DNA from: a virus
Taxonomy: Duplodnaviria; Caudoviricetes
Direction: 5' to 3' (one strand)
DNA: 64,000 bases
IMG/VR virus record: IMGVR_UViG_3300029955_000001
Position numbers and translations under genes: made by a program. The notes below the pieces were generated by a model that was not told the DNA's origin, searched no databases, and worked only from the letters and a program-made list of their open reading frames with translations. Below, piece by piece: positions 61,043 to 64,000 of the stretch (the stretch's first letter is position 1; every line of letters begins with the position of its first letter).

Positions 61043-62527
61043 TTGATTCTAAATTACAACAATGGACACTTTATGGCTGATAAGAAGGTGATAGGTAGGG
61101 AATGTAAGTTCGTAGTATATATCCCGCCTCCAAATGATAGAAGTGTAGATAAACACTGTATTAAAGAAGTGGTTCATTATGATGACGGAACAACAGAACC
61201 CACCATTCGTATTATTGACAATTACAAACGTGATTTTTACATAACTAAAAAAGGATTTCAAAAACACAACGATAAGAAGGAATGGGATGAACTTGATCGG
61301 ATGAATAAATATCAATCAAGAGAATGTGATTTAATGAAAAATGTTTGTAGAGCAATTGACTTTCCAAACTTTAAAGGTAACATGAAAAAACTGTGTCGTA
61401 ATCCTTATATTTACGGCACTGATATTCTCTCTACAGCGATTATCAAACATTCGTATATGGAGAAGTATCCAGAATGCATAACGCCTTACACTGAATGCAC
61501 GTACGACATTGAAACAGACATGATAGAAGGTCATAAACACATCATCATGGCCACGGTTTCATTTGGGAAGAGAGTATTCACAGCTGTTCATAAAGAGTTC
61601 ATTGGCGACCGTATGGACGTCATTAAACGACTACATGAAAAGCTACATAAATATCTTGGTAGGTTCATAGAAGAACGCCAAATTGAATGGGAAGTAAAAC
61701 TTGTTGATACAGAAGGTGAAGTGGTAACTGAGTGTTTTAAGAAAATACATGAATGGAGACCAGACTTCCTTGCTATCTGGAACATGAACTTTGACATACC
61801 ACAAACACTAGAAGCATTAAAGAGAGCTAACATACGCCCTGAAGATGTATTCTCCGACCCTAGTATACCTTTCGCCTATCGTTTCTTTAATTATAAAGAA
61901 GGTGATGATGTTAAGCATAACTCTGACGGCACTACTAAACCATTAGGTTTTGCTGAGCGTTGGCATAGTGTGTTTTGCCCTAGTAGCTTCTATGTCATTG
62001 ACCCGATGTGTGTGTATCGTCAATTACGTAACGGTAGCCAAGAAGAATCTTCTTATGCACTAGATGCTATCTTAGATAAAGAATTTGCAGACAAACCAGA
62101 TATTCGTAAACTGAAATTCAAAGAAGCAGAAGGTTTTGAAAAAGGTGAATGGCATTCATTAATGCAAGCAAATTATAAATTGGAATATGTTATCTATAAC
62201 GTATTTGACTGTGTGTCAATGGAAATCTTAGATGAAAAGATTAACGACATACGCAGTGGTTTCCCGATGCAATGTGAATGGTCTGATTTTAAAACATTCA
62301 AGTCTCAACCTAAACGTTTAGCTGATCTATTACACTTCTTTGCTTTGAAAAGAGGTAAAGTAATGGCTTCTGTTTCTGATCAAATGACAAATGAATTAGA
62401 TCTAGAAACGACAAGTATACGCGGGTGGATAACGACATTACCTGCACATTTAGTAGTAGAGAATGGTTTACGTTGTATTATTGAGAACCAATGGGTAAAC
62501 ACAAATATTAGGGTTCATGTAGCTGAT
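61043..62527 (+). CDS. Family B DNA polymerase subunit (phiKZ gp82-like), exon 1: 3'-5' exonuclease up to the start of motif A
   Basis: ExoI YDIETD, ExoII WNMNFDIP, ExoIII YNVFDC; ends ...RVHVAD at the expected D of the DxxSxYP motif A; likely start at ATG 61073. Confidence 0.88.
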
Positions 62528-64000
62528 TAACAAAGATTAATAAAGTACCACCATTATATGTAGTTAACAACATATTTGGAGGTTCTGTGTTTAAAGAAGA
62601 ACAATATTTACCATACAGCAATGCTAGGTATACAGTAAATCAATATGGGAATGTGTTTGAAAGTTACGGAACACAACTTCAAACATATGAAATAGATAAT
62701 CGAGTTTATGTAGATATTGACTGGATAGAAGGAAAGAAAGCATATCCAGTGGCATTATTAGTTTTAGCTAGTTTCGACATGTTGTATATGTTTCCATCTC
62801 ATCTTTATTCAAAAGTAGAATTAATGTTTAAAGATGGAATAGAAAAGAATCTTAGTCCTTCTAATTTAGTCTATCGTTTTAAAGATGGACCTATTGAAGT
62901 TGAAGGATATCCTGGATTTTATTACATACCGTTTTATACCGGTTACGCTATTAATATCAATGGTGATTTAATTAATATTAATAGAGGTAAAATTTTAACT
63001 TGGTATAGCCAAAAAAGTAATGGTATTAATAATCGAAAAGGTGGATACTTATACCACACTAAAGTTAAAAATGGAAAAACTAGTATTTTACTTAAACATC
63101 GCGCTATGTGTTTTGTTTTTAAAATATATAACAGTAATGTAAAAGAAATTACAGTTAATCATAGGGATTGCGATCCTACTAATAACAAACTCGATAATCT
63201 AGAATGGTCTACCTATAGTGAGAATAACATTCACGCTATAGAAAATGGTCTTAGGGCTAGTAGATCTCGTGCTGTATTAATGCGTAATCTAAAAACAGGT
63301 GAGATAAAAAGATACCCTACAATCACACAATGTTCACGTGATATAGGGCAACCACATACTGGTCTAGTCAGACATAGATTAGACAGTGAACATTCTATTA
63401 ATAGAGTGTACCCTGACTTCTTACAGTTTAAATACGACGACGGTGTAGCTTGGCCAGAGATCGATTTAAATAAAGTAAAGATTACGTATAGTACTGATAG
63501 TACTGATATCATTGCTAGAAATGTTTTCACTGGCGAATGTATTATTTTTACCGGAGCACAAAATGGTAAAAAATCCACCGGTGTAGAACCTTCACAAATT
63601 TCCCGACATTTACGTGATAATTGTCAAATACCTATAATCGGCTGGAATTTTCAATATTTAAAATGTTTAGGTCCATGGCCAAACCATACCCATAGGCATT
63701 TACAAATATATGAAAAACATCCATTACATCCAAGAAATGGTCTTATATTAACCAAAATCGATACAGGTGAAGAAATGTTCTTTACTAGTGTAAGAGAAGG
63801 TTCTGAAGCTCTTGGAATTGATATGCGTAATTTACAAGTAGCGGCTTCCAAGGGTGGGAAATATGGTAAGTACATTCTTAAAACTTTTAAACTTGAAGAA
63901 AATCTAGGTCAGCCTATAGAGTAATCTATAGAAAAATAATCATCTAATTGCTGGAACCTCTCGTAAGACTAATCAACTAAAGCGGATAGTGAAAACTAAT
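62528..64000 (+). mobile_element. Group I intron (5' part), homing endonuclease in L1
   Basis: Exon end GCTGAT (62522-62527) pairs with GTCAGC (63908-63913) with a U-G wobble at the splice site; P2 CTATAGA-GTAA-TCTATAG (63914-63931); conserved P element AATTGCTGGAAC (63946-63957). Confidence 0.85.
62587..63924 (+). CDS. Intron-encoded HNH homing endonuclease with repeated DNA-binding modules
   Basis: TVNHRDCDPTNNKLDNLEWSTYSENNIHA (HNH_3 type); two N-terminal NUMOD4-like repeats; C-terminal NUMOD1/IENR1-like repeats; GGAGG SD before GTG. Confidence 0.92.
   Translation: MFKEEQYLPYSNARYTVNQYGNVFESYGTQLQTYEIDNRVYVDIDWIEGKKAYPVALLVLASFDMLYMFPSHLYSKVELMFKDGIEKNLSPSNLVYRFKDGPIEVEGYPGFYYIPFYTGYAININGDLININRGKILTWYSQKSNGINNRKGGYLYHTKVKNGKTSILLKHRAMCFVFKIYNSNVKEITVNHRDCDPTNNKLDNLEWSTYSENNIHAIENGLRASRSRAVLMRNLKTGEIKRYPTITQCSRDIGQPHTGLVRHRLDSEHSINRVYPDFLQFKYDDGVAWPEIDLNKVKITYSTDSTDIIARNVFTGECIIFTGAQNGKKSTGVEPSQISRHLRDNCQIPIIGWNFQYLKCLGPWPNHTHRHLQIYEKHPLHPRNGLILTKIDTGEEMFFTSVREGSEALGIDMRNLQVAASKGGKYGKYILKTFKLEENLGQPIE

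Follow-up and report, generated by a model that had tools for sequence, protein, structure and literature searches.

A probable mobile group I intron with an HNH endonuclease gene in its P1 loop, next to motif A of the DNAP-N gene of an uncultured chimallivirus-like jumbo phage

The stretch of viral DNA analysed here (IMG/VR record IMGVR_UViG_3300029955_000001, Caudoviricetes; 64,000 nucleotides, hereafter referred to as the window) carries at its 3' end a DNA polymerase gene that breaks off close to the active-site motif A and is followed by a gene for an HNH endonuclease. This arrangement very probably represents a mobile group I intron that carries an HNH gene. The gene that it interrupts encodes the N-terminal subunit (DNAP-N) of the DNA polymerase of an uncultured, chimallivirus-like jumbo phage; the insertion separates the codons of ...VAD from those of LDVSASYP... 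and adjoins motif A. The original prediction had proposed a group I intron adjoining polymerase motif A with the HNH gene in the P1 loop, and the comparative evidence from relatives supports this proposal. The intron is probably of the phage IA type. Its first 1,473 nt occupy positions 62528-64000 of the plus strand, on which all the features described below also lie, and the end of the window cuts off the rest. It starts with TAACAAAGAT, as do the introns of two uncultured relatives, L046 and L047.

The interrupted polymerase open reading frame (ORF; 61043-62530, 495 aa) has its mechanical start at a TTG at 61043, the likely DNAP-N start being the ATG at 61073, and ends in ...NIRVHVAD followed by TAA. 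In tblastn searches it matched 290 chimallivirus and jumbo-phage records at 96-100% coverage, among them phiKZ-like, RAY-like and Goslar phages and including phiKZ gp082 and Goslar gp068, with gp346 of Burkholderia phage FLC9 as the top match for exon 1 (48% identity). The match of the exon 1 protein to PF03104 is weak. Residues 1-481 of P0003, a full-length relative, align to the window exon 1 as one block, and in FLC9 and RP31, which are uninterrupted at the site, ...NIRVHVAD runs on into LDVSASYPNGE. Chimalliviruses split their DNA polymerase into DNAP-N, the exonuclease part, and DNAP-C, encoded elsewhere, which is the polymerase domain (PMC13648698, a 2026 preprint). On the basis of full-length homology to the Goslar gp068/phiKZ gp082 family, in which the subunit ends shortly after motif A, the interrupted gene is assigned to the DNAP-N of a chimallivirus-type jumbo phage. 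Its predicted exon 1, delimited by tblastn and by alignment to the relatives, extends over 61043-62527; it comprises the exonuclease domain and breaks off two codons ahead of the motif A Asp.

Because the gene encodes the DNAP-N part of a split polymerase, exon 2 should contain motif A, and neither motif B nor motif C is expected downstream; the earlier expectation of a motif B in the downstream exon is thus abandoned. The canonical spacing of motif A is D-x-x-S-L-Y-P, by which the metal-binding Asp is predicted to be the second residue of exon 2, that is, the D of LD, and the ORF therefore ends two codons before it. Of the claim that the polymerase ORF stops right at the motif A Asp, the proximity to motif A holds and the exact position does not, being two codons short by this spacing. 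An alignment to the RB69 polymerase ended before motif A, so that it gave no indication as to which Asp of D-L-D is catalytic.

Inteins also target the active-site motifs of polymerases, and an intein, or some other in-frame insert excised from the protein, was considered for this position. This reading was rejected on account of the TAA stop (62528-62530) directly after the Asp codon; furthermore, the HNH ORF is provided with a separate start and ribosome-binding site and no intein domains were found, which leaves such an insertion with a negligible probability.

The anatomy of the visible part of the intron conforms to the 5' portion of a group I ribozyme. The exon end GCUGAU (62522-62527), the predicted 5' strand of P1 with the 5' splice site after U62527, pairs with GUCAGC at 63908-63913, 1,380 nt downstream, over 6 bp with a U.G pair at the splice site. 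GUCAGC, the putative internal guide sequence and P1 3' strand, also encodes the Gly-Gln of the endonuclease tail. It is directly preceded by the P10 guide AUCUAG (63902-63907), a hexamer that pairs with the start of exon 2 in relatives, and the predicted exon 2 of the window would therefore start with CUAGAU or CUAGAC (Leu-Asp). Directly after the guide follows the P2 hairpin CUAUAGA/UCUAUAG (63914-63931), with 7 bp and a GUAA loop, and then J2/3, the P3 5' strand, J3/4 and the P4 5' strand (63932-63956). The J3/4-P4 element within this segment, AAUUGCUGGAA (63946-63956), is near-invariant in 15 relatives and fits the Rfam RF00028 consensus AAUUGCGGgAAA in the alignments of the relatives. Judged by alignment with the introns L022, L047, L044, L043 and L049, the segment 63957-64000 comprises J4/5, P5 and the first part of a P5 extension, which contains a hairpin capped by GAAA. 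The final 29 nt of the window can be aligned to the P5 extension of L022, the two sharing a 22-mer with one purine difference, and in this extension the window resembles L022, unlike L043, L046 and L047. From the start of the guide sequence, 93 nt remain in the window, and the P4 3' strand is expected some 40 nt beyond its end.

Between the splice site and the guide lies the HNH homing-endonuclease gene (62587-63924, 445 aa, GTG start), recognised by PF13392 and by its homologues at the same site. The encoded protein ends in ...LGQPIE; the guide and the P2 5' arm coincide with the final codons of the gene, whose UAA stop (63922-63924) falls in the GUAA loop of P2. The pairing of the exon end with GUCAGC some 1.38 kb downstream with a terminal U-G pair, the GUAA-capped P2 and conserved element after the guide, and the double use of the last endonuclease codons (GQPIE-stop) as guide and P2 had all been anticipated, and all are confirmed at these positions.

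The structural assignments were examined across 121 related loci, gathered without deduplication, 82 of which are uninterrupted full-length matches; 17 introns were found at the exact codon boundary of the window. With the guide search in the relatives anchored on the true P4 element, the exon/guide pairing of P1 was seen to covary in the 17 homologous introns: besides GCUGAU/GUCAGC of the window, the pairs GGUGAU/GUCACC, GGAGAU/GUCUCC, GGCGAU/GUCGCC, GGGAU/GUCCC and CGGAU/GUCCG occur, and at the wobble position all four bases are represented, each with its partner. P2 is paired in 92% of the cells of 15 relatives, with all seven of its pairs changed on both sides, and no shuffle or slid register came near its pairing score. 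AUCUAG pairs over 5-6 bp with the exon 2 start as P10 in L046, L047, L049, L090, L044 and L026, and L043, after its exon 2 start had been shifted three bases by hand, has GUCUAG opposite the exon 2 start CUAGAC. Every mapped intron of the relatives ends in a terminal G. A covariance model, R1, built from 15 relatives with the window left out, gave a single significant match in the 64-kb window, at 63900-63971 (76.1 bits, E 1.3e-17). Since P1 and P2 covary and this match is single, the guide/P2 pairing of the window is more than a chance occurrence.

Codon usage at the boundary is likewise distinctive. The splice-site Asp codon is GAU in all 17 intron-bearing alleles as against 12 of 55 distinct intron-less sequences, obtained from 62 uninterrupted relatives, the rest having GAC. 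Intron-less alleles mostly read GAC-UUG at the site and intron-bearing ones GAU, mostly followed by CUA. This GAU/CUA bias fits the requirement of P1 for a U.G pair together with the P10 pairing, and the GAU bias is what selection for the U.G pair, or else co-conversion, would be expected to leave.

The position of the HNH gene is indicated by introns that lack it. The ORF-less introns at the same site are 309-521 nt long, and in them the splice site and the guide are separated by only 9-21 nt; the HNH gene is therefore placed in the P1 loop. L049, from a sister sample of L046, has the L046 intron minus its ORF; this intron measures 309 nt, and GUCACC and P2 come after a P1 loop of 9 nt (UAAAUCUAG). 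Comparison of the twins thus locates the ORF in the P1 loop and shows the final eight of its codons to be part of the ribozyme. The two twin introns lie in near-identical exons (L046 2377-4058, 1,682 nt with a 442-aa HNH gene; L049 5429-5737, 309 nt), and the pair looks like a snapshot of the gain or loss of an endonuclease gene inside a P1 loop.

Homologues of the element as a whole are the introns of L046, L047 and L043, which measure 1.68-1.74 kb and carry HNH ORFs of 442-448 aa in the same P1-loop position, ending ...LGHPTE or ...LGHPIE across the guide and P2. Directly after these ORFs comes a complete RF00028 core (89.7, 80.1 and 64.1 bits, respectively). An RF00028 match was obtained in every same-boundary intron scanned; against a threshold of 50 bits the scores were 64-94 bits, that of Goslar alone being lower (44.7 bits). 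Exon 2 was mapped as LDV/LDI..SYPN in L046, L047, L043 and Goslar, reading LDVAASYPN or LDVSASYP in the first three. The distance from the guide to the 3' splice site is 300-358 nt in the relatives, from which a full length of about 1.68-1.74 kb is predicted for the intron of the window. A further relative, L062, has the same exon end GCUGAU as the window and a homologous ORF, and its contig ends before the core.

The exon 1 codon is Gly (GGU) in L043, L046 and L047 and Ala (GCU) in the window, with the guide base matching in each. The guide base opposite the second base of this Ala/Gly codon also sets a residue of the endonuclease tail, which is Gln (CAG) in the window and His (CAC) in L046, L047 and L043. 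A nuclease-tail Gln/His set by the pairing of the guide with the exon is a modest addition to what is known.

These introns also bear upon the possibility of a split gene with a free-standing HNH endonuclease, that is, of two polypeptides made with no RNA splicing. Precedents exist in mobE in nrdA of Aeh1 and in the split gene 43 of some T4-like phages; the chimallivirus polymerases are already divided into DNAP-N and DNAP-C, and the polymerase ORF of the window has its own stop codon. Against such a split stand the exon-complementary guide, the P2 and the P3-P5 strands after the HNH gene, the ORF-less introns of 309-521 nt at the same site and the exon 2 of the relatives checked, which begins Leu-Asp straight after the terminal G without a start codon of its own. 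A split gene is thus considered highly unlikely.

Several results weigh against the interpretation as a functional intron. The P4 3' strand, P6-P9 including the guanosine-binding P7, the terminal G and exon 2 all lie past base 64000, and exon 2 was not found elsewhere in the 64-kb window. With the 3' two-thirds of the core and exon 2 beyond the window, the evidence for both is comparative and comes from relatives. The window has no RF00028 match, its end giving only chance-level Rfam matches; the gathering score was not reached as only about 90 nt of the core of about 300 nt are present. Neither tRNA genes nor any Rfam family at the gathering threshold were found in positions 1-64000. The window DNA had no megablast match in the phage collection and no exact match in the viral, metagenome and genome contig collections. 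Searches of public proteins with exon 1 and with its last 160 residues yielded no near-identical spliced protein or transcript fragment, the best being at 55-56% identity, and there is consequently no direct evidence of splicing for the window copy. In the literature consulted, too, splicing of this intron family was deduced from homologues and not measured.

The unseen 3' core and the lack of a spliced product in public data would also be compatible with a decayed intron, with the core or splicing lost in this copy and DNAP-N truncated or a pseudogene. However, DNAP-N is a conserved core gene with 290 phage records, both exon 1 and the HNH ORF are intact, the score of the ribozyme portion within the window (76 bits) is as good as those of functional-looking relatives and P1 is perfect over 6 bp with the GAU codon needed for splicing. 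Decay in this copy is accordingly judged improbable, if somewhat less so than a split gene, and the mobile intron is retained as the preferred interpretation. We infer the unseen 3' two-thirds of the core, exon 2, splicing, and the activity and target of the nuclease from these comparisons of sequence.

For such an intron the following course of events is proposed. In the pre-mRNA, the guide AUCUAG-GUCAGC (63902-63913) would pair with the exon 1 end GCUGAU and with the predicted exon 2 start CUAGAY. The ribozyme core would then excise about 1.7 kb and join GCU GAU to CUA GAY, restoring ...HVAD LDVSASYP... as one subunit. The HNH protein would recognise an intron-less DNAP-N allele and nick or cut it, and repair would copy the intron in, leading to its spread. 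From the overlap of the ORF with the guide and P2 it is a reasonable inference, with a precedent in T4 td/I-TevI, that translation and splicing may compete. Nucleus-forming phages separate transcription from translation (PMC12908238), for which reason the case for competition is weaker here, as splicing may be finished before ribosomes meet the RNA.

The predicted endonuclease contains an HNH_3 domain (PF13392, 35 bits against a cut-off of 24.8; residues 189-214, corresponding to 63151-63228), whereas the matches to PF22083, an I-HmuI NUMOD-like domain (19.1 bits, cut-off 27), and to NUMOD1 (14.2 bits, cut-off 22.8) are weak and both below the cut-off. It aligns with the I-HmuI structure 1U3E only weakly (E 0.1), with the positions of the catalytic His and Asn lining up. 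It is predicted to be an I-HmuI-like homing endonuclease, its activity being surmised from these similarities. Among the ORFs at the same site, its identity is 57% to that of L043, 48% to L047, 44% to L062 and L046 and 33% to Goslar gp069.

The HNH ORF begins 56 nt after the stop of the polymerase ORF, and its GTG start is preceded by GGAGG. This Shine-Dalgarno sequence (62578-62582) lies in the 3' arm of a hairpin predicted by RNA folding at 62547-62583 (-12.1 kcal/mol, z -1.5). Equivalent hairpins of different sequences are present in the other four ORF-carrying homologues, L046, L047, L043 and L062 (z -3.2 to -3.6); the five introns with an ORF thus agree in having such a fold, with the Shine-Dalgarno in its 3' arm, between splice site and ORF. 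Four of the five also have a TATG near the hairpin apex, located in the window at 62557-62560 on the inner 5' arm. TATG is the core of the phiKZ late promoter, with the G as the start site, and is frequent by chance (PMC4666361). In T4 I-TevI, the ribosome-binding site is sequestered by a hairpin, and a late promoter within that hairpin makes it accessible (PMC2988022, PMC3984707), and the layout of hairpin and TATG in the window resembles this control. Masking of the Shine-Dalgarno by the hairpin may thus control translation of the nuclease.

The same kind of intron is known from cultured phages. Among phage proteins, the HNH protein is most similar to homologues from Pseudomonas phage HPP-Temi (36% identity) and Goslar (gp069, 33%), and next to intron nucleases of the phiKZ gp179 type. 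HPP-Temi and Goslar each have the HNH gene flanked by the two pieces of DNAP-N, with an RF00028 match starting where the ORF ends (59.2 bits in HPP-Temi; 44.7 bits, E 1.8e-8, in Goslar). The intron in Goslar gp068, the DNAP-N gene, has been described as self-splicing and as carrying the homing endonuclease gp069 at the same junction (PMC13648698). Goslar (NC_048170, 79690-81186 and 82949-83203) shares with the window the gene and the codon boundary, its junction being VAD|LDISSSYPNG, as well as the location of the ORF between the 5' splice site and the guide, a GUAA-type P2 cap, an identical AAUUGCUGGAA and a homologous HNH_3/NUMOD endonuclease (33% identity over 82% of the protein). Since Goslar has been published with the same intron at this site, including a homologue of the HNH gene, the arrangement is already known. 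Unlike in the window, the Goslar ORF stops just before the guide, with no overlap with P1/P2, and its P1 has 4 bp; its RF00028 score of 44.7 bits is below the threshold, and the host polymerases are only about 36% identical.

An ORF-less group I intron is present in gp085, the DNAP-N gene, of PhiPA3 (L122, HQ630627; 1914-2219, RF00028 71.7 bits), at ADLD|IVSTYPN, and the GenBank record annotates neither this intron nor exon 2. The same intron as in PhiPA3 gp085 is found in HPP-Temi (L004, 4766-5101), where it has the HNH gene that is 36% identical to that of the window.

Endonuclease-bearing introns of phage DNA polymerase genes have long been represented by SPO1 (I-HmuI), Bastille (I-BasI) and Pf-WMP3 (I-PfoP3I), the classical cases of HNH nicking endonucleases in group I introns. 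As in the window, an HNH_3-type endonuclease is encoded there in a group I intron of a phage DNA polymerase gene. These polymerases belong to family A and the intron ORFs lie outside the P1 loop, and the HNH protein of the window is about 2.5 times longer than endonucleases of this type. The I-TevI ORF lies in the P6 loop of the td intron of T4. In that intron, translation of the ORF lowers splicing (PMC2988022, PMC3984707); it differs from the window in that I-TevI is a GIY-YIG enzyme, that its ORF is in a loop other than P1 and that transcription and translation are coupled in T4.

Nearer to the window are the introns of PhiPA3 gp210 and of phiKZ gp179 and gp56, which are also chimallivirus group I introns with HNH genes at catalytic motifs of essential polymerases, phiKZ gp179 being detectably homologous to the HNH ORF of the window (28% identity). 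They differ in targeting RNA polymerase and not DNA polymerase. The HNH endonuclease gp210, of an intron in the virion RNA polymerase beta gene of PhiPA3, has been shown to mediate interference competition (Birkholz et al. 2024, PMC11620839), and among these chimallivirus introns it is the only one for which this is so. By extrapolation from gp210, the nuclease of the window may serve as a weapon against co-infecting phages. A more elaborate version of this idea is that the endonuclease forms a self-regulated cassette, in which the ribosome-binding site is masked by the hairpin in read-through RNA and free in transcripts from a putative TATG late promoter near its apex, and nicks the DNAP-N of intron-less co-infecting chimalliviruses late in infection, giving interference competition at the replicative polymerase like that of PhiPA3 gp210. 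This is offered as a speculative and rather unlikely proposal.

The surroundings of the insertion site are frequently interrupted among uncultured relatives. Four insertion positions fall within about 40 codons of DNAP-N (P0003 numbering), namely 449|450, 481|482, which is that of the window, 483|484 and 488|489, the loci being L026/L069, L090/L091, L048, L028, L092, L041, L053, L085, L095 and L107. Several contigs carry two introns, and in L026 and L090 a 21-nt micro-exon (LDVSAS and one codon) separates tandem group I introns, which in L026 score 89-94 bits each for RF00028. About one-third of the uncultured relatives gathered are interrupted in the HV(A/G)D-LDVSASYP stretch, as against a handful of the 290 deposited phage genomes. 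The stretch is thus recognised, by comparison of sequences, as a crowded homing site and intron hot spot of chimallivirus DNAP-N, which is a modest addition to the published cases.

For annotation, these observations mean that both exons of DNAP-N should be joined, as truncated DNAP-N entries are common, Goslar gp068 and PhiPA3 gp085 both being without an annotated exon 2. The polymerase targeted here is a DNA polymerase, beside the published chimallivirus HNH introns in RNA polymerase genes (PMC11620839). For studies of phage competition, the element provides a second case of an essential gene that an intron nuclease might attack.

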